Assembly: GCA_963755715.1 (NCBI GenBank)
Contig: CAVWLW010000052.1
Span: 1 to 64,000 of the forward strand
Source: an uncultured delta proteobacterium
Lineage (GTDB): Bacteria; Desulfobacterota; Binatia; UBA9968
Length of the DNA: 64,000 nt
Direction of reading: 5' to 3'
A program made the position numbers and the translations under genes. This document shows, piece by piece, positions 9,579 through 28,689 of this stretch. The notes beneath the pieces were generated by a model. It worked only from the letters and a program-made list of their open reading frames with translations, was not told where the DNA came from and ran no database searches. Numbering within the stretch: the first letter of the stretch is position 1; the number at the start of each line of letters is the position of its first letter.

Positions 9579-10974
<1,396 letters not shown>

Positions 10975-11089
10975 ATGCGCCAAGTATCGGATAAATTGAC
11001 GTGGTGTCAACGGTAGAATCGGCCCTGTCAGCAGGAAGACTGCCATAAGGAGCAAGCCACGGGTTAACGATAGGTTGCCATTAGCAATT

Positions 11090-11695
11090 TCATTTCGCGA
11101 TCGCTTCTTGAACGAGGCGTTGGAGGTGTGTACGGCAGCGCTGCAAGCTTTGAGAACTTTCGGCGGCAATCGCTGGTCGCCAAAGTTTAGATTGAACAAA
11201 TTCGATTAACCTTGAAGTATACGCTGGCCCGACGGCTCGTCCGCTACTCGGCCGAGGGACCATGTCCTCACGGATGCTTCGGCGTTGGGATCGAGCAGCC
11301 AGATCGACCATTTTGGCCTTGGGATTCGACTCCAGTTCTGGGTTTGTTGGAACACGTGCCGGTGACACGGAAAGAAACTTGGCTATGGATTCTCGGTCAG
11401 CGAGAAGCCATGATTCGACCGCCCGTATAGCTACGCGAAAGCACAGGTGTGCCGCCTTTACACCGATCCAGTTGCGGCACAACTCGGGGGCACAATCCGC
11501 ATCATGGTCCAGATCCACGAGTACGATCCAGGGGCGAAACTTGGCGGCGTTATTGTAACCACTGATGCTGGCATGCAAATACGATTTCCCTTTCTTGCCA
11601 TAGATATGCCCGGCGCTAGCGCCAGCTTCGCCGATGAGAAACTTGACGACGGCTTCGTCGACCAAACCTTCTACTGCTCCCGAGATAACGACCAC
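11090..11695 (-). CDS. TOPRIM-like protein (DUF4276-like), partner of the adjacent ATPase
   Basis: [16 protein letters not shown] (DxD) and [10 protein letters not shown] motifs; starts 3 nt after the ATPase stop. Confidence 0.65.
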
Positions 11696-11698
11696 CCT

Positions 11699-14780: not shown

Positions 14781-14805
14781 TGAACTTATTCTAACATTCC
14801 GCTCG

Positions 14806-14835
14806 ATTAGATGCTAAGGTGGAAGTAACGGATGC
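14806..14835 (-). promoter_or_regulatory. ECF-type promoter motif, copy 1 (before DNA ligase)
   Basis: Minus strand GCATC-N16-GCATCTAAT, ending 25 nt before the GTG. Confidence 0.65.
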
Positions 14836-14926
14836 AAAGTAGATCGGATCAATCTTCAACCCCCGCAAATGGTGAACGAGAATCGCCTAAGCCGGTCATT
14901 TCAGTAAAGGATGAAAGGATGGAATC

Positions 14927-15490
14927 ATGACGCGACGTGGTTTATTGCGGAGTTTGTTGGCAGGAGGAATCTGGTCCGCTTTAAGGGGACACTTAGCGGC
15001 GGCGCAGCCGGTATCGTTGAAAGATGTCGAGGCGCTGCAAAAAAACTGGAAGTCGCTCCTCGCCGAAGGGGTAAAAGTGCCGTTGCCCAACGAGCAACTC
15101 AAACTATCCAAAGAGGAGTGGCGCAAGCGATTGTCGCCGAATGAATTCAACATTTTGCGTGAGGAGGGCACGGAGCCTCCCGGCACGAGCCCGTTGAATA
15201 GCGAGAAGCGCCCGGGAATTTACACCTGCGCGGGCTGCGGCTTGCCGCTCTTCACCTCCGAGATGAAATACGACAGCGGCACAGGCTGGCCGAGCTTTTT
15301 TGCGAGCATTCCAAGCGCCTTTGAGACCAGCACGGATTTCAAATTAGTTCTGCCGCGCACCGAATATCACTGTGCGCGTTGCGGCGGCCACCATGGCCAT
15401 GTCTTCAACGACGGCCCGCCGCCCACCGGAAAACGATGGTGCAACAACGGCGTAGCTCTGAAGTTCATTCCGAAGTCCGGCAAGATTTGA
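14927..15490 (+). CDS. msrB: Peptide-methionine (R)-S-oxide reductase with Tat-like signal
   Basis: CAGC, KYDSGTGWPSF, RTEYHCARCGGHHGHVFNDGP, RWCNNG; N-terminus MTRRGLL. Confidence 0.93.
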   Translation: MTRRGLLRSLLAGGIWSALRGHLAAAQPVSLKDVEALQKNWKSLLAEGVKVPLPNEQLKLSKEEWRKRLSPNEFNILREEGTEPPGTSPLNSEKRPGIYTCAGCGLPLFTSEMKYDSGTGWPSFFASIPSAFETSTDFKLVLPRTEYHCARCGGHHGHVFNDGPPPTGKRWCNNGVALKFIPKSGKI

Positions 15491-15623
15491 TTGTGCGCCC
15501 CGTTGGCCGCGTCGCATAACTTGGATGCTGTGACTGCGGCAAAAGGTGCAGGGCGGGCAGACTGCTGTGCGGTTGCAAGAGAGTCTTTGAGGTCTCAGGT
15601 GCCAGGGTAGCCAGAACGGTCGA

Positions 15624-16010
15624 TCAATCGCTGGCAAAGCGGATGCCGAAAGCCGTCCGGGTCCGCGATAGTGAAATCTCGCAGGCCGTAGTAACGATCG
15701 GCGATCGGAATGATGAATTCGCGCACCCATGTCTATTACCAAGCGCCAATAGTCATCCACGTTGGGCACCATCACTCTGATATTGGCGGCAGGAAACTTT
15801 GATGAAGCGGGCGACTCTATTGGGCCCGCTTCGTGGAACGCTGACAGCTCGGCAAGAAACAGACGATGGTCTTCGCAGGTAGACGACGAAATCACCGCCG
15901 TCGCGCAGTAGCGCAAATCCCAATTGACAATAGAACTGAGTGGAATGTTTTATGTCCTTGACGAGGATTTCGGTGACGAGCTGTTCCGTTGGTTCGACGT
16001 ATCTGCTCAT
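15624..16010 (-). CDS. VOC/glyoxalase family protein (frameshifted)
   Basis: LVKDIKHSTQFYCQLGF...IRVMVPNVDDYW...DRYYGLRDFTIADPDG across frames. Confidence 0.8.
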
Positions 16011-16121
16011 AAAAGGCAAAGTTAAATGTTGTGCGCAGGCCAGTCAACGACTCTGGTCGAACTGAGGTTTCGGTGTGATATCAGATATCAGCCCTCGGCA
16101 AATACGACGCGCTACGCGAGC

Positions 16122-16303
16122 TTACTCGGCAACACGCGAAGCGACGGCGCCGCAACCGGGCAGCCGTGGGTTTCTTCGATCAAACCGCCCAGTGATGCGT
16201 CGAAGTTCGCGGCTTCACGTCCTTCGATCGAATAGATCAGCTTGTCGGCGTGATGATTCATCTCGTTGCCGCACTTCGGGCAAATCATTTTGCTCTTTGC
16301 CAT
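16122..16303 (-). CDS. Small putative zinc-ribbon protein (CPKCG...HxCPGCG), 1-nt frameshift
   Basis: RBS AAGGAG; MAKSKMICPKCGNEMNHHADKL...EETHGCP. Restoring one base gives CPGCGAVASRVAE*. Confidence 0.65.
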
Positions 16304-16316
16304 CTCGGTTTCTCCT

Positions 16317-16889
16317 TTAACTATCCAGAGTGATGTTATCCCGGCCGTGGCGCAGCGTCTTGGCCATCCAAACAAGCTCGTCCAAGAATTTATCGGCGCG
16401 CTTGATAAACGCTTGATCGAGAAGGTTGCCCGATGGGTCGAATACGCTGGCGACATTGCCGAAATTGACGTCCCAAAAAATGTTGACTAACCCGAGCTCG
16501 CGAATCACCGGCAGGAAATCCTGAATCGCGCGCACGCCGCCGAAAGGTCCAGCCGATACACCGACGATGCCGGCGGCTTTGTGGATGTATTCTTTCAGGC
16601 AGCTGTCTAAAACGTGTTTGAGCAAACCAGGAAAGCTATGGTTGTACTCCGGCGTGACGATCACCAGGGCGTCGGCCATCGTCATCCTGTTCGAGAAGGT
16701 GGAATCCTTGATCTCTTCGCCGGCGTCGTCAATTGGCATGGGCAGGTCCGAGAGATCGATCAAGTCGGTCGAAATACACGGTCGTTTTTGGATCTGTTCG
16801 ACCATGAAGCGCGCGGCGTGAGCGCTCATGCGCCCTTTGCGGGTTGTCCCCAGGATAACCGGTATGCTCAGTGGTCTGTTGTTGGTCAT
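16317..16889 (-). CDS. NADPH-dependent FMN reductase
   Basis: LGTTRKGRMS, VTPEYNHSFPGLLKHVLD, SAGPFGG. Confidence 0.92.
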   Translation of the reverse strand: MTNNRPLSIPVILGTTRKGRMSAHAARFMVEQIQKRPCISTDLIDLSDLPMPIDDAGEEIKDSTFSNRMTMADALVIVTPEYNHSFPGLLKHVLDSCLKEYIHKAAGIVGVSAGPFGGVRAIQDFLPVIRELGLVNIFWDVNFGNVASVFDPSGNLLDQAFIKRADKFLDELVWMAKTLRHGRDNITLDS

Positions 16890-16902
16890 TGCTCGTGCTC
16901 CT

Positions 16903-17181
16903 TTACTTCACTTGTGACAAGCTACCAACGCTCGCATCGGGTTGAACGCCAGGAATGTTCAACGGCATGCGATAAAGGCTGCCCTGCGCGGTCATATAAA
17001 GAGTCTTGCCGTCGTCGCCGCCCCACGCCATGTTGTGCGGGTGCCTGGGCGCGATGATCGTGCCCAGATGTTTCGCCTCGGGGGAAATGATCCACAATCC
17101 GCCGGGGCCGGAAACGTACAAGTTGCCTTGTCGATCGACTTTGATGCCCAACAAACTGCTGGTGGTGAAAAATGTTTTCAT
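16903..17181 (-). pseudogene. SMP-30/gluconolactonase remnant (C-terminal ~80 aa only)
   Basis: GIKVDRQGNLYVSGPGGLWIISPEAKHLGTI...NMAWGGDDGKTLYMTA behind an 11-aa leader; RBS GGAGGAG. Confidence 0.75.
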
Positions 17182-17284
17182 TTGCTCCTCCGATGAATTT
17201 GCTCCGATTGTTTTTCGGCCGGGTCCTAACAGGGAAGCTGGGCCCGGCCTGATGCCGCTTTTTTCTCGCGGCCTTGTTTGCAGG

Positions 17285-17314
17285 ATTAGATGCGGCGGCG
17301 CTCAAAAGAGATGC
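17285..17314 (-). promoter_or_regulatory. ECF-type promoter motif, copy 2
   Basis: GCATC-N16-GCATCTAAT upstream of the lactonase remnant / FMN reductase operon. Confidence 0.65.
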
Positions 17315-17452
17315 GAGACGAGAGCTGGAAAAGCATTGGAGTGATGAAGAACGGAGTGGTGCGATATAAAGAGGGCTTCAGCAGTCGGGCGGAATGCTAG
17401 CGAACAACGTCTGCCGCGGCGATTCACCGCGGTAGCGAGGAAAGGTTGAGAG

Positions 17453-18427
17453 CTACGCGAACTGCGGCGAGGCGCTATCGACCCAGTGAGGACGGATGCC
17501 GGCCAAGTCGAGCGACGCCAGGACGCGCTTCGGCTCGCCGAGGTCGCTCCACCTGAGACCGCTGACTTTGAGAACCGCGAGCCGCTGCGGCAGTTGCGCG
17601 AGCACTTGATGAGAAAAATTGATCTCCTCCAGGCTTTGGTAGAGCTCGGTCACTGCTCCGGCCTCGGCCCGAGTGGCGAATAAAGGATTTAAGCACGCGA
17701 ATGCACGGTAAAAACCGGGAAGCGCGCTCTCAATGATATCGAGCAGCGCTTGCACCGAGGCGACCATCACGAAACTGTTCCACAGGCAGCCGCGCAGTTG
17801 CAGGACTTGGGCTAACACTTGGTTGGGCTTTTCCCAAAAACGCCGCACGCCAGAAACTTTGGCGTTGCCTTTGGCGGGCAGCGTCGGTTCGATCCAGCCG
17901 TATTCCACTTCGGGACTTTCGGGCTCGACTCCAAGCAGAATCACGACATCTCGTCTCACTCGTGCGGTGTCGAGCGCGGTGCGGATGTGGTTCATAAATT
18001 TTCGATTGTCGGAGATATAGTGATCCGACGGAAACAGGGCGACCACAGCCTGTGGATCTGCCGCCGCAATGCGCAGGAGACCATAGAGGATCGCGGGCGC
18101 GGTGCCGGCATTACGCGGCTGTACGACAAGATTCGCCGGACGCTTGTCGGCGAGGATCGGCGCATAAAAGGGTTCGTGCGCCTGGTTGACGATGTAGAGG
18201 GTACGTTCTTCCGGCAATTCCAAAGCGGCTCGCCGTTGGGTTTCTTCGAGAAGTGTGGCGCGGCCGAGGACTGAGCAAAACTGCTTTGGCCGTTCATCCC
18301 CGGCAATCTTCCGCGTTAAAGACTTGAGCCGAGTGCCGTCTCCGCCGGCCAAAATGATCGCCCATTCACGATCGAGAGGTCTGGACACCGTGTTATTCGT
18401 GTTTTCGTCGGCTGATTGTTCGAGCAT
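17453..18427 (-). CDS. Mannose-1-phosphate guanylyltransferase-like sugar nucleotidyltransferase
   Basis: ILAGGDGTRL, PKQF, QPRNAGTAPAI, FPSDHY, EYGWI, RFWEKP, WNSF, WSDLG. Start placed at ATG 18427 after GAGG. Confidence 0.85.
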   Translation of the reverse strand: MLEQSADENTNNTVSRPLDREWAIILAGGDGTRLKSLTRKIAGDERPKQFCSVLGRATLLEETQRRAALELPEERTLYIVNQAHEPFYAPILADKRPANLVVQPRNAGTAPAILYGLLRIAAADPQAVVALFPSDHYISDNRKFMNHIRTALDTARVRRDVVILLGVEPESPEVEYGWIEPTLPAKGNAKVSGVRRFWEKPNQVLAQVLQLRGCLWNSFVMVASVQALLDIIESALPGFYRAFACLNPLFATRAEAGAVTELYQSLEEINFSHQVLAQLPQRLAVLKVSGLRWSDLGEPKRVLASLDLAGIRPHWVDSASPQFA

Positions 18428-18491
18428 GATGAATACCTCGTTAGAAGTTCGTTGTATCGAACCCTCAATCCGAGTTTCGGATTGCTTGTCG

Positions 18492-18521
18492 ATTGGATGT
18501 CTAACGGCGGACAAACGATGC
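18492..18521 (-). promoter_or_regulatory. ECF-type promoter motif, copy 3
   Basis: GCATC-N16-ACATCCAAT. Confidence 0.55.
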
Positions 18522-18774
18522 TAAAGATTCGAAGGCTGACACTCCGCCCAATCTAGATGCGCACTGAACGTACAAGTGGGAGATTAATTCCGGATGGCGC
18601 CGATGGTTAAGAATTCGTGACCCGTTAAACTGAGCAGCGGGATGGCACAAACTCAACCGCGATACCGGCTGCCTGAGACGGTTGGAGTGCGGTTGGAGTC
18701 GGATCGCCCGGCTGCGCTGGCACAGTCTGATCATTCCCACGGAGGGGCGGCTAGAATGACTTAAATCATCGGTG

Positions 18775-18927
18775 TCAACTGTCTCCGCCACGGCCAAATA
18801 GACGGTCCCTATTTTGACTCGCAGGGTGCTCAAAAATCGTTCCAAAACTAAATGCCGATATCATGAAGAGCCCGAGACAGGCGCCTTCGATCAAGTATTC
18901 AGGCCAATGGTTCTTCAGCGCATCCAT
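18775..18927 (-). pseudogene. Truncated MIP/aquaporin-like N-terminus
   Basis: MDALKNHWPEYLIEGACLGLFMISAFSFGTIFEHPAS, then an unrelated tail and stop at 50 aa; below the ORF track cutoff. Confidence 0.55.
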
Positions 18928-18934
18928 CACTAGG

Positions 18935-18963
18935 ATTAGATGCGGAAGATTTTAAAATGATGC
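18935..18963 (-). promoter_or_regulatory. ECF-type promoter motif, copy 4
   Basis: GCATC-N15-GCATCTAAT immediately before the aquaporin-like start. Confidence 0.6.
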
Positions 18964-19056
18964 GATAACTTGACGGTGCATCAGTAGCGGAAGCGTGGTG
19001 GGCTTGCTTTTTTGTGCCGCGGCAGTTTGATTGGGATCAAGGTTTCCTGGAAGCGA

Positions 19057-19674
19057 TTAGTTTTTGCCGCCCTGTTCGTAAATCGATCTTGATTCGGATT
19101 GGCGAGCGCGGTCGATCTCGCTATCGAATTGACGGCCGATTCGCTGCGCCGAGGCGGTGAACTCGCCTGCCTCCGGCTTTCCCGCCAAAGTGCGCTCGAT
19201 GGCAAGTCGAATCGTCCTATTCGGGTCCCAGTGAATGCCGTAGACGCTGTCTGACGTAACTTCATCGAGCCATGCGTGCATGCCATTGAGTCCGGCATCG
19301 ATTTCCTTGCGACCCCGCTCTCGATCGTTCGACCGATAAAGCGTGAGCCCGAAGTAGAGCCGCGCTAAATAGTCATTGTTATCGTTGGCAAGGGCGCGCT
19401 CGAGAACAGCGCGCGCTTTAGTGTTGTCACCGGTCTCATAATAAGCGCGACCGAGATAGGTCAGAATGCTTTCCTGCGCCCTGGTGGGGAGTTTGTAGTT
19501 CGGATCCGACTCAGCGGCGCGGCTGAGATAAATGACAGCGTCCTCAGGATGGCCAGTCTGAAGCGCCGCGCGACCCGCTTGAACGTCTCGACCGACTTGA
19601 AAACTGGCGCAGCCGCCTGCCAGCATGAGTGCTAGCAAACATGTTGAAATCAATGTTCGGCTTGCATTCCTCAT
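19057..19674 (-). CDS. TPR-repeat lipoprotein
   Basis: Lipobox-like LAGGC; TPR helices (YLGRAYYETGDNTKARAVLERAL); RBS GAGGAG. Confidence 0.8.
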   Translation of the reverse strand: MRNASRTLISTCLLALMLAGGCASFQVGRDVQAGRAALQTGHPEDAVIYLSRAAESDPNYKLPTRAQESILTYLGRAYYETGDNTKARAVLERALANDNNDYLARLYFGLTLYRSNDRERGRKEIDAGLNGMHAWLDEVTSDSVYGIHWDPNRTIRLAIERTLAGKPEAGEFTASAQRIGRQFDSEIDRARQSESRSIYEQGGKN

Positions 19675-19767
19675 AGACGCTCCTCTGCTGACACTCATTG
19701 GGGAGCATCATCAAATATCGCCAACGAGTATCGCGCTGAGCGACTGGAACGTCAACTGAGTAAGCGA

Positions 19768-20880
19768 TCAGTTGAGCGCGATCACGTTCTTGATGCCGCC
19801 GCCTTTCCCCAATAGCAAATCGCGGTGCGCTTCAATGGGGAAGCGGCCGGTGATTACACTGCGAACCGCTTCGGGCCAAGTATCAACGAACGAACCGAGA
19901 TCTCGGATCGACGCTTCGAAGGCGTCGCGCCCGGCGTTGACCGTGCCGAACACCACTTGATTTTTCAGAACTAGATTTCGCATCATCAAGTCGGTGTCGA
20001 TCTCGACGGGTCCCTTGCGTCCGGGAACTCCGGTAAACACAAAAATTCCGTTGGTGCCGAGGTGTTGGATCATGTCAAAAGCAAGGCGCGACGCGCCGGT
20101 CGCTTCATAGACCAAGTCGACGTTGCCGACTTCTGATGCCAGAGCTTCGAGCGAATGGGTTTCCGCCGAGAGATACTTGGCGCCGATCATTGCCAGCACG
20201 TCTGCTTTCGGATTTGGCACGGGCTCGCGGGCGTAGACGTAGGTATCGAAGCCGTTCTTGACTAAAGCCATGGCGCCGAGCAATCCCACGGGACCGGCGC
20301 CTAAGACTACGGCTTTGTGGCAGTGCGCTTGGGCCTTGTTCGCTGCCGCGGGACAACCCCACGGTAGTCGCCGCTGCACATCCCAAACTTGAATTAACGC
20401 CTTTTCGGCGATCGTTAGAGGTTCGACTAAGATCGCGAGGTCGCGGAGATCTACGGGCACCGGATTCATATACTGTTCATCATCGACGACAAACTGCGCC
20501 ATGAAACCATGCCGCCCTTTAATGCCGCGTTCGGTAAAGTCTCCGGTGAAGCAAAAGTCCTGGTGCCCGACCCGGCATGCCGGACAATAGTCGTGCGGAC
20601 AGGGCCGACGGACCATCGGTACGACAAGGTCGCCGACTTTGACGCGTGTGACCTTCGCGCCGACTTCGATGACTTCTCCCAACGATTCATGGCCGATGAC
20701 CAATTCGGCCGATCCGGCCGGCGGCGTGCCGTATTCGAAGGCGCAGATCTCTTTGTCGGTGCCGCAAACGCCGGCTTCAAGCATCCGCAGCTTGACATCG
20801 GTGGGGCTACAGAGGCGAGGTTCGGGTAGATTGATTAACCCCAATTGTTTAGTTTCCGGTGTGACGGCGATCGCTTTCAT
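19768..20880 (-). CDS. Zn-dependent glucose 1-dehydrogenase-like MDR enzyme
   Basis: GVCGTDKE, GHE, MVRRP with Cys cluster, ERGIKGRHGF, LVEP, VLGAGPVG, VFGTVNA. Confidence 0.85.
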   Translation of the reverse strand: MKAIAVTPETKQLGLINLPEPRLCSPTDVKLRMLEAGVCGTDKEICAFEYGTPPAGSAELVIGHESLGEVIEVGAKVTRVKVGDLVVPMVRRPCPHDYCPACRVGHQDFCFTGDFTERGIKGRHGFMAQFVVDDEQYMNPVPVDLRDLAILVEPLTIAEKALIQVWDVQRRLPWGCPAAANKAQAHCHKAVVLGAGPVGLLGAMALVKNGFDTYVYAREPVPNPKADVLAMIGAKYLSAETHSLEALASEVGNVDLVYEATGASRLAFDMIQHLGTNGIFVFTGVPGRKGPVEIDTDLMMRNLVLKNQVVFGTVNAGRDAFEASIRDLGSFVDTWPEAVRSVITGRFPIEAHRDLLLGKGGGIKNVIALN

Positions 20881-20968
20881 GGCCAATTTTCTCCTGTGAA
20901 TTCGTCGAGGGTGGATCACCGAGAATGAGTCTTCGGTTGAGCCCCCGTCTAAGTTGATTCGTTAGTTT

Positions 20969-20998
20969 GTTGGATGACGCGATCCGGAGAAAAGATGC
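20969..20998 (-). promoter_or_regulatory. ECF-type promoter motif, copy 5
   Basis: GCATC-N16-TCATCCAAC. Confidence 0.55.
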
Positions 20999-21027
20999 AG
21001 CAGGCAAATCCCGATGAGCGCGCTCGC

Positions 21028-21285
21028 TCAGCGGCGCAAGCTCAAGCTTTCCGACAGCGCTGCTCCACGAAGACGTAAAAACGAGCGGCTGAGCTCAATG
21101 GTTTTCCTGTAGGTTTGCAGGAACGCCACGCAATCCGGGCATATTTGCTGATGTGATTCAAAGGCCAAACGGTCCGCCGCCTTTATTTCCCCGGAGATAA
21201 GATCGGCGAGCAGAGCAACGGCTTGCGCGCAAGTGACCGATGAAACGGCGCGCTCGCGCCGTCTTGTCGCGCGCGCGTTCAACAT
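21028..21285 (-). CDS. Soluble zf-HC2 (ZAS) anti-sigma-like protein
   Basis: TCAQAVALLADLISGEI...HQQICPDC (HxxxCxxC). Start uncertain. Confidence 0.8.
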   Translation of the reverse strand: MLNARATRRRERAVSSVTCAQAVALLADLISGEIKAADRLAFESHQQICPDCVAFLQTYRKTIELSRSFLRLRGAALSESLSLRR

Positions 21286-21376
21286 TGACTTTTTTCCCGC
21301 GCGGCGTATGGCTTGCCCAGGCAAATTGGCGATAACAGAAATGGCAATGCCCTCCTGATGGCGCCAACAGTGCTGG

Positions 21377-21634
21377 TTAGGCCCATACTTTAGTTCGACC
21401 GAAGCCGCGCCGCGCTCGGCGCGTTGAGCCCTTGCCCTCGACGAGCTTTACGGGGGCCAGTGTGCGCGCAAGACGTACCCGATGTGAATCGAAGATGCGC
21501 TTGAAAACCGCCAGCACCAAGGCGTCGTCTTTGGTCAGCTTAGTGAGTTCTTTCAGCACATCCATGAAGGTTGTCCTGATTGTCGCGCGCTTTAGACCAA
21601 CGGCCGATATTGCTGAAGATCGCTTCGCTTTCAT
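21377..21634 (-). CDS. Small basic hypothetical protein
   Basis: RBS GGAGGG; own promoter motif; core RTTFMDVLKELTKLTKDDALVLAVF. Confidence 0.7.
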   Translation of the reverse strand: MKAKRSSAISAVGLKRATIRTTFMDVLKELTKLTKDDALVLAVFKRIFDSHRVRLARTLAPVKLVEGKGSTRRARRGFGRTKVWA

Positions 21635-21666
21635 GGTAGCCCTCCGTGATGGCATCTGACGTATAG

Positions 21667-21696
21667 ATTAGATGCGCGGCCATCAAGAAAGGTTAC
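21667..21696 (-). promoter_or_regulatory. ECF-type promoter motif, copy 6
   Basis: GTAAC-N16-GCATCTAAT. Confidence 0.65.
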
Positions 21697-21937
21697 AGGA
21701 ATTTTAAAAGATCTTAACAAGTCAGCTTGGAGCTTATCCGCGGTGATCCCTGGACAATGTCATCCAGATCATCTGGCGGCGGCTCAATAGAAGCGCGCGT
21801 TGCCCGAGACGGCGATTTGAGCTGCACGCGCGCCTCAGCGCTCAAACCGCAGTGAACCGGCTAGAGAGGAAATCAGCCGCGGCGCCATTGCCTAGCGCTG
21901 CGGGGAATCGCCCGCGGCTGATTTGTCTCACCGAGCG

Positions 21938-22141
21938 TTACATGTCTCGCAAGGTTTCGGTTTCGTTGAATTTTCGGCTGGTTTTCAGGGCGCCGCCGCT
22001 GGCATGATCGCGAATAAGATCCAAGCGCGACTGAAACCAGGTACCGCGCGGCCAAGCCCAGTGTTGCTGGGGTAGGCGCTGCTCGTTGTAGTAACCCTGG
22101 TTGACCGGGCTCTGAGTAAAAATCGCTTCCCAATTAGTCAT
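21938..22141 (-). CDS. Small hypothetical protein (67 aa)
   Basis: RBS AAAGGGGG and an upstream promoter motif; no family recognised. Confidence 0.45.
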   Translation of the reverse strand: MTNWEAIFTQSPVNQGYYNEQRLPQQHWAWPRGTWFQSRLDLIRDHASGGALKTSRKFNETETLRDM

Positions 22142-22216
22142 CTAAATCCCCCCTTTATGTGGCAATTCTCTACGCTAGGGATACAAGCCCTAACTTGTCA
22201 AGATGTGCCCCTGGCG

Positions 22217-22246
22217 GTTAGACGGCGGCGGCCGATGAATCGTTGC
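22217..22246 (-). promoter_or_regulatory. ECF-type promoter motif, copy 7
   Basis: GCAAC-N16-CCGTCTAAC. Confidence 0.65.
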
Positions 22247-22264
22247 GCTCGAAGCGGAGGGTTT

Positions 22265-22576
22265 TCAAATCGCGAGCTGGGTTACGATGCAAAGCAGCAC
22301 TGCGCCCAGGCGCCGAATCCGCTTGCGTAGAAAGGTCAGGATATTGTCGCGCACGCTGGCGGGGAGATCGCTTTGTTGAACCGACTTCGTGACTGCCACA
22401 GTTTTTTTATAGGTGTTCAAAAAATTCATGCAATCCGGGCAAACGGCAAGGTGTTGCTCGAATTCGCGCTTAACGCTCGGACTGAGTTTGCCGGTTAGAT
22501 AGCCGAGAACCAAATCGGTCATTTGGCGACAAGTCTTGCTCGTCAAAGCTTTCGCAGATTGCTTGCGCTTTGCCAT
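22265..22576 (-). CDS. zf-HC2 (ZAS) anti-sigma factor
   Basis: TCRQMTDLVLGYLTGKL...HLAVCPDC; directly downstream of the ECF sigma. Confidence 0.88.
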   Translation of the reverse strand: MAKRKQSAKALTSKTCRQMTDLVLGYLTGKLSPSVKREFEQHLAVCPDCMNFLNTYKKTVAVTKSVQQSDLPASVRDNILTFLRKRIRRLGAVLLCIVTQLAI

Positions 22577-22584
22577 TAGGAAGC

Positions 22585-23355
22585 TCACGCCGCCGTGTAA
22601 CCGAGGTGTACGGCCATTTTTCCACGAAGAAACAAACGCGCCCGGTGCAGCCGGGTCTTGACCGCCGAGACGGTAAGGTCGAGCGCAACCGCGATTTCCT
22701 TATCGGACAGTCCTTCAAGATCGCTCAGCACGATGACACTCTTATCAATTGGTTTTAATTGATCCAAGGACTTGCCGAGCAACTGCTGGACCTCGCGTGT
22801 AGTGTATTTCTCGTCCAACGTGTCCGACCAATCCACTACGGGTCTAACCCTGTGATGGCCGTCCTTTTGAAACTTCGGCAGAAATTCTTCGTACTCAACC
22901 TCTTTGTTTTTTTTGCTCCGGCGGATTTTTCCCAAAGCGGCATTCACTGTCAGGCGATAGAGCCACGTGGAAAACTGTGAATTGCCCTGAAACGAATTTG
23001 CTTTGCGGTAAGCAATCCAAAAAACATCCTGAATCACTTCCTCGGTATCTCCGGGATCACCGAGAATACGCAGTGCGACGTTGTAGAGTTTCGCGGAATA
23101 GAGGTTAAAGATCGCTTCGAGCGCATCCTGGTCACCGGCCTTGAGACGTTCGATGAGTCGAGCGTCGTCTTGCGCGGATTTGCGCTGCCTCATCGCACGC
23201 TTCGGGGCCAGGGATTTCAGACTGAATGGTGGTGGGATTGCCGAGGCGGCGCAATTTGCCGCAGCGGGGCTCGGTGCCTTCAATGTTTCGAGTGCGGACA
23301 TAACCATCTCCTCTCCTCGAGTCGCCAAAACTTCCGGCTGTTCAAGACGCATCAT
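22585..23355 (-). CDS. ECF-family RNA polymerase sigma factor with N-terminal extension
   Basis: Region 2: DTEEVIQDVF...FQGNSQFSTWLYRLTVN. Region 4: LSDLEGLSDKEIA...AVKTRLHRAR. Confidence 0.95.
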   Translation of the reverse strand: MMRLEQPEVLATRGEEMVMSALETLKAPSPAAANCAASAIPPPFSLKSLAPKRAMRQRKSAQDDARLIERLKAGDQDALEAIFNLYSAKLYNVALRILGDPGDTEEVIQDVFWIAYRKANSFQGNSQFSTWLYRLTVNAALGKIRRSKKNKEVEYEEFLPKFQKDGHHRVRPVVDWSDTLDEKYTTREVQQLLGKSLDQLKPIDKSVIVLSDLEGLSDKEIAVALDLTVSAVKTRLHRARLFLRGKMAVHLGYTAA

Positions 23356-23356
23356 T

Positions 23357-23633
23357 TCAGTCGGTCCTTTCCACTGTATCTAAGAGCGCGGTAATGAAGG
23401 GTGAGCAGTTAATAATTCGCAGAGTCTCTCCTTTGAATCCTTGCGAGCTTAGCCGCGGGTTCATCATTCATGAAACTCACGCCCGCCATATCTAGGATAA
23501 TCATCGGTGGTTTGCCCTGATGGTAACGAGAAAACGCTTTGTCGAGTTCCGCGTACGACTCGGTTGTTAAGCTGCCGTCCAGGCGCAATCGAATCACGTC
23601 GCCATTTTCTAAATTTTCTGTGATTCTCAGCAT
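23357..23633 (-). CDS. STAS-domain small protein (1-nt frameshift)
   Basis: MLRITE..IRLRLDGSLT...IILDMAGVSFMND. Removing one base continues ETLRIINCSPFITALL to a stop 1 nt before the sigma start. Confidence 0.8.
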
Positions 23634-23667
23634 GTCTCTTCGCTCCCCTGGATGTGAATGCTTTAAC

Positions 23668-23683
23668 GCAGAGTTTATGCCAG
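23668..23683 (-). promoter_or_regulatory. Sigma-54 (-24/-12) promoter for the STAS-ECF-antisigma operon
   Basis: Minus strand CTGGCATAAACTCTGC (GG-N10-GC), 34 nt before the STAS ATG. Confidence 0.7.
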
Positions 23684-23732
23684 CTCTCAACTACCTAAAT
23701 TATTGGTATTTTTGATGTCGGAGCAATTTGCG

Positions 23733-23780
23733 GCGCGATATTTCGTTGCGATATTTCGCAACAGTTGTGAAATATCGCAA
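23733..23780. promoter_or_regulatory. Tandem palindromic enhancer (UAS) sites
   Basis: TTGCGA-TATT-TCGCAA (23746-23761), TTGTGA-AATA-TCGCAA (23765-23780) and a partial third copy GCGCGATATTTCG. Confidence 0.7.
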
Positions 23781-23823
23781 TTGGACGTATGAATTGAGAT
23801 TATCTAAGTGCGAAGAGGTCAGC

Positions 23824-26397
23824 GTGCAAAATCAGCGCAATATTGAGGCGAGCGGCGGCGATGAAATCTTGTACCACATCACCGACGGCATCGCCGGCGC
23901 CATCGGCGAAGAATTTTTTCGCTCGTTGATTCGCCATTTGGCCGACGCCTTACAGGTTCGCTATTCGTTTGTCACGGAATGCACCGACGAAACGCGAACA
24001 CGCGTTCGCGCCCTCGCTTTTTGGGACGGCGCCGGCTTCGCCCAAGACATCGAGTACTCACTGCGCGGCACACCCTGCGAAAAAGTCATCGAGGGAGAGG
24101 TCTGCGCTTATCCGGAGCGGCTGCAATTATTATTTCCCGCGGACAAAGATTTGGTCACTCTCGGCGCGGAGAGTTTTGCCGGCGTGCCACTGCCGAATTA
24201 TCAAGGCAAAGTGCTGGGACACCTCGTGGTGATGGACACTAGGCACCGAGTTTTTGATGAGACGGAGCTTCGGATACTTCGCATATTTGCGACCAGGGCC
24301 AGTGCTGAACTGGAACGCATGCGGACCGACCGCGAGGTCAACCTGCTCAATGCGGAACTGAGCACGCTTCTCGACATTAACCGCGCGGTCGGCCGTCATT
24401 TACACCGGGATAGTTTGTTTGGCGCGCTTGCCGAATGTCTAAAGACGCTGGTCCCGACGGAACGGTTCGGCATCGAACTGCCTCTCGATGGTGGTCAACT
24501 GCAGGGACATATCTTGTCGACAATTCCGGCGGGTGGCGCGCCGACACAAACCACCCTATTGCCGGCTGCCGGTACTGCCTGCGACTGGGTGTTAAGCAAT
24601 CGGGTCTGGTTCATCGCCGGCTGCCGCGACGAATTCCGCGAGCGCTTTCCAGTGACTCATGAGGTAATGGCCGGCGACGGCATGGAGTCTTTGTGCGCGC
24701 TGCCGATGGTCAGCGGTGAACGCGCCCTGGGCGCGCTCTTTTTCATGGCGGCCGAGAGAGACGCCTACGGACATTTGCGCCGGGAGTTTCTCGAGCAAGT
24801 CGCCAACCAAGTCGCGATCGCCGTGGCCAACATGAATGCCTACGAAGAGATTGCGGCGCTCAATGCAAGCATCGCGGCGGCGGCAGCGCGCCGGCGCACA
24901 ATCCTCGACATCAATAATGCGATTGTCACCAAGCTGACGCGCGACGAGCTATTGACCGCGGTGGGCGAAGCGTTGGCGCGGGTCATAGCGTTCGATCGTC
25001 TGGCGCTGTCGCTTTATGAACCCAAAGAAAATTGTCTCAGGATTTTGAGCTACGCGGGACCTTACCAGCGGGATGATTACACGCCGATCGGCCGCCGGCT
25101 CAAGCTGGACGACAGCCCGGCGGGACTCGCGTTCGCGACGCGCCAGCCGATTTTGCGCCGCGATCTAGAACGCGAGCGGCTGACCAGTTCTGAGGAGCGG
25201 GCCTACGGACATGGGTTTCGCTCGATCTGCGCCGTGCCCCTAGTCGTGCGTGGGCTGAGCATCGGCGGGCTCACCGTCGGTAGCCTCACACGCGAACAGT
25301 ACTCCGAAGCAGACGCTGATTTCCTAATGGAAATGGCGAGTCAGATCGCTATCGCCGTCGACAATATGAGAGTCCACGAAGAAGTGGAATCGTTAAAAGC
25401 ACGCTTCGAGGCCGAGGCGGTTTATCTTCAGGAAGAAATCAAAACCGAGCACAACTTCGAAGAAATTATCGGCCAAAGCGCGCCGATCCGCCAGCTATTG
25501 AAGAAGCTCGAACAGGTGGCGCCGACGGACGCCACCGTCCTGATTCACGGCGAAACCGGCACCGGCAAGGAACTTCTAGCGCGGGCGGTGCACGACCGTA
25601 GCCGGCGTAAAAATCGAGCGCTGGTCAAAGTGAATTGCGGATCGATTCCCTCCGGCTTGGTCGAAAGCGAGCTGTTTGGCCATGAGCGCGGCGCGTTTAC
25701 CGGCGCGACGCAGCAGCGCATCGGTCGATTCGAGCTGGCGAACGGTGGAACGATCTTTCTCGACGAAGTGACCGAGCTGCCACTCGATACCCAGGTTAAA
25801 CTCTTGCGCGTGCTCCAAGAAGGCGAGTTCGAGCGGGTCGGCAGCAGCCGCACGATCAAAGTCGACGTGCGCGTGATCGCCGCAACGAATCGAAATTTGC
25901 AGGAAGTGGTTAGGAATGGCTCTTTTCGCGCTGATTTGTTTTATCGCTTGAACGTTTTTCCGCTCGAGGTGCCGGCACTACGCGAGCGGCGCGAGGATAT
26001 CCCGCTATTGGTCAACTTTTTTCTCAGTCGGTTCGGCAAAAACCTGGGTAAAGAGGTTCGCGGCGTGTCGCAGAAATCGATGGAGAACCTAACTAAATAC
26101 GCCTGGCCGGGCAACATCCGCGAGTTGCAAAACGTCATCGAACGCGCCGTGGTCCTGGCCAAAGGGCCGATCGTAGGGATCGACGACTCTATGCTGCGCG
26201 CCGATGAAACCGTCGATGACTCGTCATTTATCGATAATTTGGAAAACGTTGAACGCCAACACATCATCCGGGCGCTGTCGGAAACCCGTTGGGTGATTCA
26301 TGGCAAGAAGGGTGCGGCGGAGATTCTCGGCATTAACCCGAGCACGCTGCGCTCGCGGATGGATAAGCTGGGAATAAAAAAATCCCAGACCGCTTAG
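23824..26397 (+). CDS. FhlA-like sigma54-dependent activator (3 GAF + AAA+ + Fis HTH)
   Basis: GETGTGKE, ESELFGHERGAFTGA, FLDEV, WPGNIREL, GAAEILGINPSTLRSRM; three GAF-like segments. Likely start GTG 23824. Confidence 0.93.
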   Translation: MQNQRNIEASGGDEILYHITDGIAGAIGEEFFRSLIRHLADALQVRYSFVTECTDETRTRVRALAFWDGAGFAQDIEYSLRGTPCEKVIEGEVCAYPERLQLLFPADKDLVTLGAESFAGVPLPNYQGKVLGHLVVMDTRHRVFDETELRILRIFATRASAELERMRTDREVNLLNAELSTLLDINRAVGRHLHRDSLFGALAECLKTLVPTERFGIELPLDGGQLQGHILSTIPAGGAPTQTTLLPAAGTACDWVLSNRVWFIAGCRDEFRERFPVTHEVMAGDGMESLCALPMVSGERALGALFFMAAERDAYGHLRREFLEQVANQVAIAVANMNAYEEIAALNASIAAAAARRRTILDINNAIVTKLTRDELLTAVGEALARVIAFDRLALSLYEPKENCLRILSYAGPYQRDDYTPIGRRLKLDDSPAGLAFATRQPILRRDLERERLTSSEERAYGHGFRSICAVPLVVRGLSIGGLTVGSLTREQYSEADADFLMEMASQIAIAVDNMRVHEEVESLKARFEAEAVYLQEEIKTEHNFEEIIGQSAPIRQLLKKLEQVAPTDATVLIHGETGTGKELLARAVHDRSRRKNRALVKVNCGSIPSGLVESELFGHERGAFTGATQQRIGRFELANGGTIFLDEVTELPLDTQVKLLRVLQEGEFERVGSSRTIKVDVRVIAATNRNLQEVVRNGSFRADLFYRLNVFPLEVPALRERREDIPLLVNFFLSRFGKNLGKEVRGVSQKSMENLTKYAWPGNIRELQNVIERAVVLAKGPIVGIDDSMLRADETVDDSSFIDNLENVERQHIIRALSETRWVIHGKKGAAEILGINPSTLRSRMDKLGIKKSQTA

Positions 26398-27086
26398 CTG
26401 ATTTCCTGCGCACGCGCAACGGCGGACTTGCGCGCGACGGCGGCGGGTTTGCGCTTGGCCCATTTCATCGCAACTCGGTAACCCAACAAGAGCGCCAAGA
26501 CGAAGCCGTATTGTGCCGGCCGGCGAATGTCCGCTTTCACCAGCCAATAAAAATGAATCACTCCAGCGATGGCGGCGACATAAACCAGGCGGTGCAATTG
26601 CTGCCAACGTTTGCCCAGGCGGCGAATCATCGCGGCAGTCGAAGTGAGCGCGAGCGGGAGCATCATCATCAGAGCGGTAAATCCGGCGGTGACGTACGGC
26701 CGCTTGAGAATGTCCTTGCCGATCGCCGGCCAATTGAAAAAATGGTCGAGCACCAAGTACGTCGCGAAGTGGCTGAGCGCATAAGAGAACGCAAACAGTC
26801 CGAGCATGCGGCGGAACTTGATCACCTCGTTCCAGCCGGTAATTCTCCGCAGCGGTGTTACGGCCAGGCACGTCAGCAAAAAGATCAGCGCCCACGAGCC
26901 GGTGAATCGAGTGATCGTATCGATCGGATTGACGCCGAGATCTCCGGTGTAGGCTCGGTAGGCGAGTTGCCCGAACGGGATCAGGCAGGCGATGAAAAGT
27001 AAAAAATGGAGAATGGAAAATGGAGAATGGAGAATTCGTCCGGCCCGAGTCATTTTCCATTCTCCATTATTCATTTTCCATTTCAT
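26394..27086 (-). CDS. msrQ: Methionine sulfoxide reductase heme-binding subunit
   Basis: TGSWAL..LAVTPLR..RRMLGL..Y..H..KRPY..LALTS..WQQLHRLVY..IHFYW; ATG overlaps the msrP stop. Confidence 0.92.
   Translation of the reverse strand: MKWKMNNGEWKMTRAGRILHSPFSILHFLLFIACLIPFGQLAYRAYTGDLGVNPIDTITRFTGSWALIFLLTCLAVTPLRRITGWNEVIKFRRMLGLFAFSYALSHFATYLVLDHFFNWPAIGKDILKRPYVTAGFTALMMMLPLALTSTAAMIRRLGKRWQQLHRLVYVAAIAGVIHFYWLVKADIRRPAQYGFVLALLLGYRVAMKWAKRKPAAVARKSAVARAQEIS
27005..27084. repeat. Heptamer tandem repeats in inverted arrangement inside the msrQ 5' end
   Basis: About four (AATGGAG/AATGGAA) units, a spacer, then about four (TTCTCCA/TTTTCCA) units. Confidence 0.85.
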
Positions 27087-28060
27087 CAGTAGTATTTTTT
27101 TAAGTCCATGCCTTTGTACAGGCTCGCCACTTGTTCGCCGTAGCCGTTGAACATGAGAGTCTTGCGGCGCAAAAATTCGCCGATGCGCCGCTCGGTGGCT
27201 TGACTCCAGCGCGGATGGTCGACTTCGGGATTGACGTTGGAATAGAAGCCGTACTCTTGCGGTTGCATCGTGTTCCACGCGGTCTTGGGTTGCGTCTCGA
27301 CAAAGCGCACTTTGACGATCGACTTGATGCTTTTGAAGCCATATTTCCACGGCACGACCATACGGATCGGCGCGCCGTTCTGCGCCGGCAAAATTTCGCC
27401 GTAAAGACCGACTGACAAAATAGCTAATGGATGCATCGCTTCATCCATGCGCAGCCCTTCGACGTAGGGCCAATCGAGCACGTTGCCGAAGATGCCGGGT
27501 TTCTGGCCGGGCATGCGCTTGGGATCCTGCAGCGTGACGAACTGAATGAACTTGGCGTTGTTGGTCGGCTCGACTTGCTTGATCAACGCGCTGAGTGGAA
27601 AGCCGACCCAGGGAATGACCATCGACCAGGCTTCGACGCAGCGCAGCCGATAGATCCGCTCCTCGAGCGGGGCTAATTTCATCAGGGCGTCGATGTCGAA
27701 TGTTTTGGGTTTTTTGACTTCGCCTTCGACCGCCACCGTCCAAGGACGCGTGGTCAAATATTTAGCATTCTCCGCCGGGTCGCCTTTGTCGATGCCGAGC
27801 TCGTAGAAGTTGTTGTACGAAGTGATGTCTTTGAAGGAATTTTGCTTTTCATCGATGCTATAAGAGCTTTTTTTGACGTTGGCCAATTTTTCGCCGGCGT
27901 ATGCTCGGCCGGACGGTCGTAAGATATCGAGGCCGGCGAGCGCTGCGCCGGCGGTTATTAGCCCGGCAGATGCTGAAGTCATGAATTGTCGCCGGTTCAA
28001 GTAGATCTCTTTCGGCGTGATCTCCGATGACTTAATATCCGCTGGCTTTTTGATCAGCAT
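27086..28060 (-). CDS. msrP: Methionine sulfoxide reductase catalytic molybdoprotein
   Basis: SSEITP..YLNRRQF Tat signal, [41 protein letters not shown]. Confidence 0.96.
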
Positions 28061-28279
28061 GGTTTGCTGGTCCTCCTGGACTGAATAGTACGCATGGCCG
28101 CCGACAAAAGATTTCTCGTCAACTTCCCGCGGCAAGCAGTTGGTTGATCGGCGGTCGGGTTTCACACCTTAATTCTAGCGAATTATGCCCTTTTTATCGA
28201 TCAGGGCAATGATCAGTCATACTCAGGTTCAGCGGCGCTACACTACCAGGTATGCAGTCATTAATTTCACCAAACAACT

Positions 28280-28309
28280 TTTAGATGCCTGACGACAGCT
28301 TTAAGTTGC
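28280..28309 (-). promoter_or_regulatory. ECF-type promoter motif, copy 8 (upstream of msrPQ)
   Basis: GCAAC-N16-GCATCTAAA. Confidence 0.6.
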
Positions 28310-28353
28310 TTGGTTTCAGAGGATAAAACAGAAAAAGCGTGTCGAATTGAGGC

Positions 28354-28389
28354 AAAACGAATATCGGGGAGGCTAGACTCCCCGATATT
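28354..28389 (-). terminator. Intrinsic terminator candidate
   Basis: 12-bp stem AATATCGGGGAG/CTCCCCGATATT right after the 28400 stop, followed by CGTTTT on the minus strand. Confidence 0.65.
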
Positions 28390-28399
28390 TACTGGCGGT

Positions 28400-28612
28400 T
28401 TAGTGGAGGTGCTGAGAGGGGGAAGTTGCAGCTTCAAAATCCTTATCTAAATCGAATGTGTGTGCGGAATTCTTGATAATTTCGATTAACGCGAAGCGGG
28501 CCAAGTTGTAGGCTTCCCGGTCATTATCCGAATGTTCGAACGCCACCTCGCCGGCTGCCGCGATGAGGTCGCTCAGGGTGGTATCCAGCTTTCGCCGGTG
28601 CGCTTTTTCCAT
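28400..28612 (-). CDS. Small hypothetical protein
   Basis: RBS AAGGAG, own promoter motif and terminator; KLDTTLSDLIAAAGEVAFEHSDNDREAYNLA. Confidence 0.75.
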   Translation of the reverse strand: MEKAHRRKLDTTLSDLIAAAGEVAFEHSDNDREAYNLARFALIEIIKNSAHTFDLDKDFEAATSPSQHLH

Positions 28613-28660
28613 AGAATTTTTAGCTCCTTTCACAGCTTTGCACCTAACTGCTTCTGATTA

Positions 28661-28689
28661 ATTAGACGCTGGGCAGAGCAAAATGATGT
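28661..28689 (-). promoter_or_regulatory. ECF-type promoter motif, copy 9
   Basis: ACATC-N15-GCGTCTAAT. Confidence 0.55.

Follow-up and report, generated by a model that had tools for sequence, protein, structure and literature searches.

Sigma-E of Escherichia coli reads promoters of the consensus GGAACTT-N16-TCTAA, SigR of Streptomyces reads GGAAT-N18-GTT, and both SigR and SigH of Mycobacterium are autoregulated. Here we set such systems beside a locus of a soil bacterium from Candidatus Binatia, a group that to our knowledge has no cultured member, so that its regulatory circuits are readable only from sequence. The locus lies in a stretch of 64,000 nucleotides (nt) of contig CAVWLW010000052.1 (hereafter the window), part of a 7.4-Mb genome (G000), in which nine copies of a two-block motif lie around a gene for an extracytoplasmic function (ECF) sigma factor. 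These nine sites, together with three on another contig of the same genome (C51), probably make up a small clustered regulon that is read by the adjacent ECF sigma factor within a three-tier circuit.

Several described ECF systems share parts of this arrangement. In Pseudomonas syringae, the gene for HrpL (ECF32) is described as being transcribed from a sigma-54 promoter via HrpR/HrpS, which forms a cascade (PMC8999054; PMC7826278). The ECF16 pairs SigF-NrsF, BcrS-AbcS, and EcfF-OsrA are oxidant-responsive and drive an adjacent MsrP/MsrQ operon in which the gene for a small protein comes first; in the passages of the source that treat them, a six-helix DUF1109 membrane protein serves as the anti-sigma factor, and the promoter motif reads (T/C)GTAAC-N17-CGAA (PMC8315932). 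The ECF19 subgroups s7 and s18 of the Actinobacteria have a STAS gene directly upstream of the sigma gene and a soluble zinc-finger anti-sigma factor, and the passages covered describe no link to sigma-54 for them (PMC7826278).

The relatives compared were other Candidatus Binatia genomes, from the same genus and from further genera of its order. Set A consisted of 40 kb around the sigma orthologue in each of four genomes, and set B of 28 public loci around sigma orthologues (389,789 bases), several of them from the set A genomes. Where they have to be told apart, genomes, contigs, and loci carry G, C, and L numbers, respectively.

Nine co-oriented copies of a two-block motif

A sequence-only reading of the window had proposed nine minus-strand copies of an ECF-type promoter, each of them intergenic and upstream of a minus-strand gene, with single-base variation among the copies and no full copy elsewhere in the window. 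All nine are present on the minus strand between 14805 and 28689, as listed here with the scores of a two-block weight matrix that was trained on these nine sites and also used to scan the whole genome and the relatives:

14805 to 14835, minus strand: candidate ECF-type promoter copy 1, GCATC-N16-GCATCTAATC, with the GTG start of the DNA ligase gene 24 nt downstream; score 28.5, leave-one-out score 24.2
17284 to 17314, minus strand: candidate promoter copy 2, preceding the operon of an SGL-domain fragment and an FMN reductase; score 29.4
18491 to 18521, minus strand: candidate promoter copy 3, preceding the NTP transferase gene (ATG at 18427); score 27.1; orthologous sites in G004, G015, G008, and G018
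18934 to 18963, minus strand: candidate promoter copy 4, with the ATG of the aquaporin stub (18927) 6 nt after the motif; score 31.1
20968 to 20998, minus strand: candidate promoter copy 5, preceding the genes for a glucose-dehydrogenase-type alcohol dehydrogenase (ADH) and a TPR protein; score 24.9
21666 to 21696, minus strand: candidate promoter copy 6, preceding orf21377 and a second zinc anti-sigma paralogue; score 27.8; 11 orthologous sites
22216 to 22246, minus strand: candidate promoter copy 7 (weak), preceding the gene for the 67-amino-acid (aa) protein orf21938; score 21.4, leave-one-out score 12.4; three orthologous sites
28279 to 28309, minus strand: candidate promoter copy 8 (weak), preceding msrPQ; score 21.8, leave-one-out score 10.3; orthologous site in G020 scoring 19.5
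28660 to 28689, minus strand: candidate promoter copy 9, preceding the gene for the 70-aa protein orf28400; score 24.4; five orthologous sites

The pattern as literally proposed finds five of the nine sites and has 13 matches in the genome as a whole (7.4 Mb); each of the other four sites is one base off. Loosened by one step, it matches the window nine times, always on the minus strand and always within 14-29 kb, and the genome 65 times, while a pattern with a 15-16 nt spacer occurs nine times on the minus strand of the window, not once on its plus strand, and 48 times in the whole genome. Every one of the nine sites has the start of a minus-strand open reading frame (ORF) 10-115 nt downstream. 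These parts of the proposal therefore all hold. The motif is also clearly enriched over background, since 100 first-order Markov simulations of 64 kb gave a mean of 0.41 copies and a maximum of 3 (both strands summed) against the nine observed, and since the genome-wide scan returned only three comparable further sites. These are the only non-training sites scoring above 19.7, and all three lie on the minus strand of C51 (76659, score 27.6; 75416, score 26.7; 68317, score 19.9). Among the 11 genome hits scoring at least 21, nine are outside any frame of at least 120 aa, and each of the 11 is followed at 10-113 nt by the start of a co-oriented ORF; among the 24 hits scoring 16-20, 19 are inside open frames of at least 120 aa. 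Outside the window and C51 clusters, the 7.4 Mb hold only five hits scoring at least 18. When each site was scored by a matrix from which it had been left out, the nine scores were 30.0, 25.4, 24.2, 22.8, 21.8, 18.6, 16.4, 12.4, and 10.3.

At the nine sites, the first block reads GCATC, GCAAC, GTAAC, or ACATC and is followed by a T-rich stretch, and after a spacer of 15-16 nt the second block reads (G)CATCTAA, CATCCAA, or CGTCTAA. The consensus of 66 unique sites from the relatives is GCA(T/A)C-n-TTT, a spacer, and GCATCTAA, with a T-tract after the -35 element and a spacer of 16 nt in 57 sites (15 nt in five others and 17 nt in the remaining four). An A stands seven bases past the TAA in 69% of these sites, in a column that lies outside the search matrix, and it would fit a transcription start site. 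In the intact aquaporin genes of the relatives, the ATG lies 3-4 nt past the motif, as would be expected of a leaderless transcript. The best reading of the nine sites is that they are ECF-type promoters with a -35 element GCA(T/A)C and T-tract, a 16-nt spacer, and a -10 element (G)CATCTAA, and the ECF-promoter anatomy first proposed for them is supported.

Comparison also establishes that the motif is locked to one strand. All 21 matrix hits of set A scoring at least 16 are on the strand of the sigma gene, as are all 68 hits of set B scoring at least 18, with none on the other strand, and the sites stand before the same gene families, so that the motif is conserved upstream of orthologues. 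This strand lock bears directly upon the idea that the two GCATC blocks form a direct-repeat operator to which a regulator binds, rather than -35 and -10 elements. GCATC does occur in both halves, and the 21-bp spacing corresponds to two helical turns. However, the halves are unequal, with a T-tract after the first and TAA after the second, the motif invariably faces the same way as the gene that follows (68:0 in the relatives and 9:0 in the window), and start codons follow closely, most of all at the aquaporin genes. Besides the sigma factor, moreover, the sole conserved DNA-binding protein of the island is the enhancer-binding protein described below, whose palindromes differ from the motif. 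We therefore regard an operator as very improbable.

The sigma operon and its putative upstream switch

The genes and sites that make up the putative regulatory part of the locus are as follows:

21028 to 21324, minus strand: paralogue of the short zinc-binding anti-sigma (ZAS) gene, with the same ligand spacing (C-x25-H-x3-C-x2-C), behind orf21377 and promoter copy 6
22265 to 22588, minus strand: short ZAS gene, overlapping the sigma stop codon and encoding about 103 aa if read from the ATG at 22576; zf-HC2
22585 to 23355, minus strand: ECF sigma gene, listed ORF of 256 aa; translation more likely begins at the ATG at 23307, which follows GAGGAGAGGAG
23357 to 23633, minus strand: STAS-domain gene, first of the sigma operon, frameshifted near its 3' end (about 23422-23440) in G000
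23667 to 23682, minus strand: sigma-54-type promoter TGGCAT-N6-TGCG, with -24 GG/-12 GC spacing
23735 to 23790, no strand assigned: upstream palindromes, presumed sites of the enhancer-binding protein, TTGCGATATTTC ... TTGCGAAATATCGCAA ... CGAAATATCGCG
23728 to 26397, plus strand: divergent gene for a GAF-GAF-AAA+ sigma-54 enhancer-binding protein (Sigma54_activat E 1e-73, HTH_8, GAFTGA at residue 655)

The sigma protein matches Pfam Sigma70_r2, Sigma70_r4_2, and Sigma70_ECF and scores 86.8 bits with TIGR02937 (cut-off 42.9), which places it among the ECF (group 4) factors. Its closest solved structures are SigW (5wuq, E 1.7e-22) and sigma-E (1or7, E 4.4e-20), and every NCBIfam equivalog is below its cut-off for this protein (SigW 124.8 vs 209, RpoE 98.6 vs 236). 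Its gene is the second of an operon that encodes the STAS protein, the sigma factor, and the anti-sigma factor. No motif copy scoring at least 10 was found upstream of the sigma gene in any of 12 regions, autoregulation being typical of ECF factors, though not universal. The same 12 regions (one of which, L007, is from the unpublished genome G005) all carry TGGCA(C/T)-N6-TGC, and among the public loci with at least 600 nt upstream this sigma-54 element is present in 21 of 25 and on the other strand in none. It keeps a constant distance of 470-560 nt upstream of sigma residue 60. The palindromes TTGCGAtATTTCGCAA ... CGCGAAATATCGC are conserved in 21 of 22 upstream regions (L074 ends at a contig end), at about -100 to -60 relative to the sigma-54 promoter, and the enhancer-binding protein gene is the conserved divergent neighbor of the sigma gene in the relatives. 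Because a conserved sigma-54 promoter stands before the sigma operon, the sigma factor is not the top of the circuit. The sigma-54 gene itself, rpoN, is at C34:25713-27141 in G000 (locus L079; TIGR02395 368.5 bits, above the cut-off), split over two adjacent frames that cover model positions 1-101 and then 102-434, which is either a frameshift or an assembly indel. The GMC oxidoreductase gene on C51, the aquaporin gene, and the STAS gene are broken in G000 too. The 12-bp palindrome GCGAWATWTCGC, which lies upstream of the sigma-54 promoter, also occurs at no fewer than six other places in the genome (C1:116377, C14:33642, C18:10870, C20:10684, C45:51778, and C74:27376), and these copies may be sites for the same or related enhancer-binding proteins.

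The ZAS protein aligns with RsiW and RslA, and its match to the RsrA family (E 1.9e-6) is below the cut-off of that family. The ligands C16, H42, C46, and C49 (C-x25-H-x3-C-x2-C) are invariant in 20 orthologues, as expected of a zinc-binding anti-sigma factor. Since these orthologues are only 90-106 aa long and a hydrophobic tail is found in just 11 of the 20, the core of the protein is a bare cytoplasmic anti-sigma domain, as in RsrA. The ZAS ORF immediately follows the sigma gene in 20 of 26 loci, and four of the other six have a ZAS paralogue two genes further on. The second ZAS gene stands behind an ECF promoter in every locus examined. At L066, L067, L069, and L072, the immediate anti-sigma gene is missing and the sigma gene is followed by the ECF promoter, orf21377, and the second ZAS gene, the only one beside sigma, an arrangement that favors the view of the second ZAS as a functional anti-sigma factor under the control of the sigma factor.

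The STAS gene of G000 has its C-terminal LRIINCSPF... block in another frame, while the orthologues of the relatives are intact. These encode 88-95 aa and were found by a strict search between the sigma-54 promoter and the sigma gene in 20 of 26 loci. Of these 20, 17 have a match to Pfam STAS (best E 6.9e-8); the G000 copy and member 1 fall just under the gathering cut-off. Neither the sigma operon nor its neighbors include a HATPase-type gene, that is, the GHKL kinase partner of SpoIIAA/RsbV switching was not found there, and the STAS consensus reads FMNDExA where we take the phosphorylatable serine motif to lie. A prediction of the complex of the STAS protein with the anti-sigma factor, run with two alignments, scored 0.00, which speaks neither for nor against binding. 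Soil and rhizosphere contigs from four runs differ from G000 by strain variation and by indels near 15500-16100, 18600, and 18679. None of the contig differences listed is an indel at the STAS frameshift.

Distribution among relatives and the choice of reader

Sigma orthologues (64-80% identity) are present in 16 of the 31 genomes of the genus, G000 included; G020 has a frameshifted copy in addition to these, and a search of 16 genomes from other genera of the order gave nothing above about 38% identity. The strict motif pattern occurs in 15 of 24 same-genus genomes and in none of 16 from other genera. In set B, five of the 28 loci gave no hit, three of them having almost no downstream flank. 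L068 and L070, whose sigma is 63% identical, have no hits, and they also have no ZAS ORF beside the sigma gene, no sigma-54 site, and no STAS ORF. Behind the 66 assigned sites of the relatives, the most frequent gene is the ADH (17 sites), followed by orf21377 (11), orf28400 (5), NTP transferase (4), and orf21938 (3); the 23 sites not assigned to these families include about 10 before HbpS-like genes and five before MIP (aquaporin) genes. The gene order is likewise conserved, running from EamA, mutY, a transglycosylase gene, orf28400, msrPQ, and the enhancer-binding protein gene to the divergent STAS, sigma, and ZAS genes, and past ZAS to orf21938, orf21377, the second ZAS, ADH, (TPR), NTP transferase, and eventually FMN reductase.

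That so many copies sit in a small accessory island found in only about half of the genus could suggest that a short dispersed repeat or mobile element left them behind and that they have no regulatory role. However, conservation is limited to the two short blocks, the spacers and flanks being unrelated, orthologous positions are kept across genomes whose proteins are 60-80% identical, and the copies are all intergenic and co-oriented with genes. We consider such an origin exceedingly unlikely.

The sequence-only reading had further assigned all nine copies to the sigma gene at 22585-23355. This stands insofar as cluster, motif, and sigma travel together, and the ADH, which is the core target, was not found in any of the 10 sigma-negative genomes searched. 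It follows that these ten lack the central module as a block but keep the peripheral promoters. The association at the level of genomes is unclean, since the strict pattern is present in six genomes without an intact sigma orthologue (five in which none was found, and G020 with its frameshifted copy). The promoter could be read, wholly or in part, by a different ECF sigma factor, in which case the adjacent sigma would either share the reading with it or be a mere neighbor. We hold this to be unlikely, but a number of observations point in its direction or otherwise count against a regulon read by the adjacent sigma. First, G018 has lost the STAS gene, the sigma gene, the anti-sigma gene, and most of the activator gene (residues 794-889 are left) and still has sites scoring 29.4, 21.9, 21.6, and 17.8; the 29-mer of promoter copy 2 occurs there unchanged. 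No sigma orthologue was found in G019 (92% complete), which has sites scoring 31.3 and 23.0, or in G024 (97% complete), which has sites scoring 26.9, 23.0, and 17.1. These high-scoring copies in the three genomes, where no orthologue above 40% identity is present, lie before DM13, GMC, msrB-side, NTP transferase, and orf28400 genes; they may be relics or may be read by another ECF sigma, and because they persist, an exclusive assignment to the adjacent sigma is not shown. The looser pattern exceeds its reversed control not only in 17 sigma-positive genomes (196 vs 64) but also in 14 sigma-negative ones (114 vs 47), many of these hits being scattered conserved coding sequence, a background that the reversed control misses. 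Second, G000 has about 24 ECF-like candidates, and at least two of these ECF sigma genes, on C53 and C11, are preceded by a -10 of the CGTCTAA type, so that cross-reading is plausible. Third, the adjacent sigma is not autoregulated, and with no promoter copy before its own gene, the evidence by which an ECF motif usually identifies its reader is missing. There are also reservations about the data themselves. The leave-one-out scores mark the sites at 22217 and 28280 as individually weak; the core consensus of the relatives is partly circular, since a G000 matrix served to pick their sites; and the genomes compared are kin rather than independent samples. The split rpoN and the frameshifted STAS gene mean that the circuit may be impaired in G000, or else that the assembly carries indel errors. 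Finally, the stretch 14000-23990 is present in soil and rhizosphere DNA runs from 13 studies, and none of the runs listed for it is from RNA.

Other observations favor the adjacent sigma. G018 is a close relative (86-93% protein identity) with a visible deletion scar, so its sites can be recent relics. Clusters of at least three sites were seen only beside sigma orthologues or in fragmentary assemblies. The unusual ATC/CATC variant is absent before the other sigma genes checked, and the -35 blocks there differ. There is also no paralogous sigma gene near the C51 cluster. Overall, the adjacent sigma is most likely the reader of the motif, an assignment that is well supported but unproven.

As for the two other ECF sigma genes, the match on C53 (55319-55348, plus strand, score 16.9) reads TTAAC-N-CGTCTAAAC and lies 42 nt before the gene for a 191-aa ECF sigma, of which it is probably the autoregulated promoter, while the gene on C11 has GCGTCTAA upstream. 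Off the island, motif-like sites form a conserved pair 1.4 kb apart in sigma-positive and sigma-negative genomes alike (G003:C17:24092/25481, G023:C520:7046/8431, and G009:C593:2194/3632).

Predicted targets, circuit, and known counterparts

The genes behind the nine window sites are the following:

13203 to 14780, minus strand: ATP-dependent DNA ligase (Pfam/NCBIfam), a motif target in the G000 lineage only
16317 to 16889, minus strand: NADPH-dependent FMN reductase (Pfam/NCBIfam)
16903 to 17181, minus strand: SGL-domain fragment of 92 aa, corresponding to the last part of the SGL domain
17453 to 18427, minus strand: NTP transferase, mannose-1-phosphate guanylyltransferase-like (Pfam/NCBIfam)
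18775 to 18927, minus strand: truncated aquaporin (MIP), a 50-aa N-terminal stub; intact in relatives, at 265-281 aa
19057 to 19698, minus strand: TPR protein, behind the ADH
19768 to 20880, minus strand: glucose-dehydrogenase-type zinc ADH (Pfam/NCBIfam)
21377 to 21634, minus strand: orf21377, a small protein without a family match, between promoter copy 6 and the second ZAS
21938 to 22141, minus strand: orf21938, a conserved 67-aa protein without a family match
26394 to 27350, minus strand: msrQ ORF, above the equivalog cut-off; family match from residue 111
27086 to 28165, minus strand: msrP, above the equivalog cut-off
28400 to 28612, minus strand: orf28400, a conserved 70-aa protein without a family match

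Family searches bear out the labels first given by eye to the ligase, FMN reductase, NTP transferase, ADH, MsrP/MsrQ, and aquaporin stub. The supposed lactonase remnant is better described as an SGL fragment that is conserved in relatives, where it is kept as a short ORF; it is duplicated in G004 (C9:102196-102486 and 104840-105037), and instead of being a remnant it may encode a small protein with a function. The sites on C51 precede genes for a double DM13 protein, a GMC oxidoreductase (split in the assembly), and a cytochrome b561-like protein with a molybdopterin oxidoreductase fragment. Since these genes are directly downstream within the same island in G004, the window and C51 clusters were once one.

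The ligase had been counted as a member of the regulon, a membership that is not conserved. In G012, G041, G013, G016, and the unpublished G005, the motif lies 940-1170 nt ahead of the ligase gene and drives a Spondin_N-like gene; the same arrangement is present but decayed in G018, and six other genomes have no motif at the ligase. The G000 ligase is now abutted by the promoter because the Spondin_N gene was lost there, and from this comparison its place behind copy 1 is a lineage-specific promoter capture. A desiccation or general-stress programme, as initially suggested, also finds little echo in the gene families. MsrPQ, the HbpS-like and DM13 proteins, cytochrome b561 with the molybdoenzyme, FMN reductase, GMC oxidoreductase, and the CHCC zinc anti-sigma together make the regulon look like one for oxidative/redox repair.

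Some neighboring genes deserve mention. The msrB gene (14927-15490, plus strand) points away from the ligase promoter and lacks a motif copy of its own; it lies beside the island edge in G018, G024, and G004. Between FMN reductase and msrB (15150-16330, minus strand) there are fragments in several frames, and soil metagenome contigs carry indels there. Just past the ligase (10234-12889, minus strand) lie an AAA_21 (AbiEii-type) ATPase gene, a 201-aa ORF without a family match, and an N-terminal-only class II Asp/Lys-tRNA synthetase gene, which look like an insertion at the island edge.

In the circuit we propose, the first tier would consist of the GAF enhancer-binding protein, which would act from the palindromes on sigma-54 to switch on the STAS-sigma-ZAS operon, the sigma not driving its own gene. 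In the second tier, the sigma would be held by the short cytoplasmic RsrA/RsiW-type ZAS until a signal, probably thiol-oxidative, releases it. In the third tier, free sigma would transcribe the genes for MsrPQ with the small protein ahead of it, the ADH with the TPR protein, the NTP transferase, the aquaporin, and the SGL fragment with FMN reductase, together with those on C51 for the DM13 protein, the GMC oxidoreductase, and cytochrome b561 with the molybdoenzyme, and in the G000 lineage the DNA ligase gene. Free sigma would also transcribe the gene for the second ZAS paralogue, whose product would shut the response off by negative feedback. The reader of the motif, the release signal, this feedback, and any role of the STAS protein are inferences. 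The circuit may be taken further, to a cascade in which GAF sensing and sigma-54 license a response with two paralogous ZAS gates, the first produced along with the sigma and the second produced by it as a delayed off-switch, and in which the non-phosphorylatable STAS protein acts on ZAS in a kinase-free variant of partner switching, the whole being a stress island of about a dozen single-promoter operons, in an uncultured phylum, that can be transferred or lost. This fuller version is tentative, and we rather doubt it. If it operates as proposed, the three-tier circuit would be an AND gate with a built-in shut-off, in which the GAF domains respond to a metabolite or gas and the anti-sigma factor to thiol oxidation, and it would offer synthetic biology a compact orthogonal set of promoter, sigma, and anti-sigma.

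Among known systems, SigW-RsiW of Bacillus subtilis and E. coli sigma-E are the best structural matches of the sigma, and ZAS aligns with RsiW inclusive of H-x3-C-x2-C. The promoters found here also resemble the sigma-E consensus, both in their TCTAA -10 and in their xxAAC/ATC -35 with its T-tract. Unlike in these systems, the Binatia sigma is far below the equivalog cut-offs, its ZAS has no periplasmic domain, the -35 is mostly GCATC rather than AAC, and there is no autoregulation. SigR-RsrA and SigH-RshA (ECF12), which respond to thiol-oxidative stress, likewise have a short soluble ZAS of about 100 aa with a Cys and H-x3-C-x2-C, and their regulons likewise include methionine-sulfoxide repair and redox enzymes. 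The Binatia system differs in its promoter, its lack of autoregulation, its sigma-54 control, and its STAS gene.

The remaining three comparisons are with systems as they are described in the passages covered. As in HrpL, an ECF sigma gene is placed under sigma-54 and enhancer-binding proteins. HrpL, however, has no anti-sigma factor and serves type III secretion, whereas here ZAS and STAS genes are cotranscribed with the sigma gene, the targets are redox and repair genes, and the activator has GAF sensor domains. ECF16 is similar in having an ECF sigma over msrPQ behind a small protein gene. Membership in that group was considered and rejected, as the anti-sigma here is a soluble ZAS of 90-106 aa, the motif is different, and orf28400 is not methionine-rich. 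The s7 and s18 subgroups of ECF19 belong to another phylum, and their anti-sigma carries a fused mycothiol maleylpyruvate isomerase-like domain, while here the domain is bare. The combination of sigma-54, ECF sigma, ZAS, and STAS was not found in the literature searched, in which Binatota papers were judged by their first-listed titles. The result is an in silico regulon prediction and a variant of known circuit types rather than a new principle, in which about a dozen promoters, the likely sigma, its anti-sigma, and the upstream switch could all be laid out by comparison. The Binatia circuit would join two forms of control that are usually described apart, that of an ECF sigma by sigma-54, as in HrpL, and that by a zinc anti-sigma, as in SigR-RsrA, and it would add to them an anti-sigma paralogue encoded within the regulon and a STAS protein.

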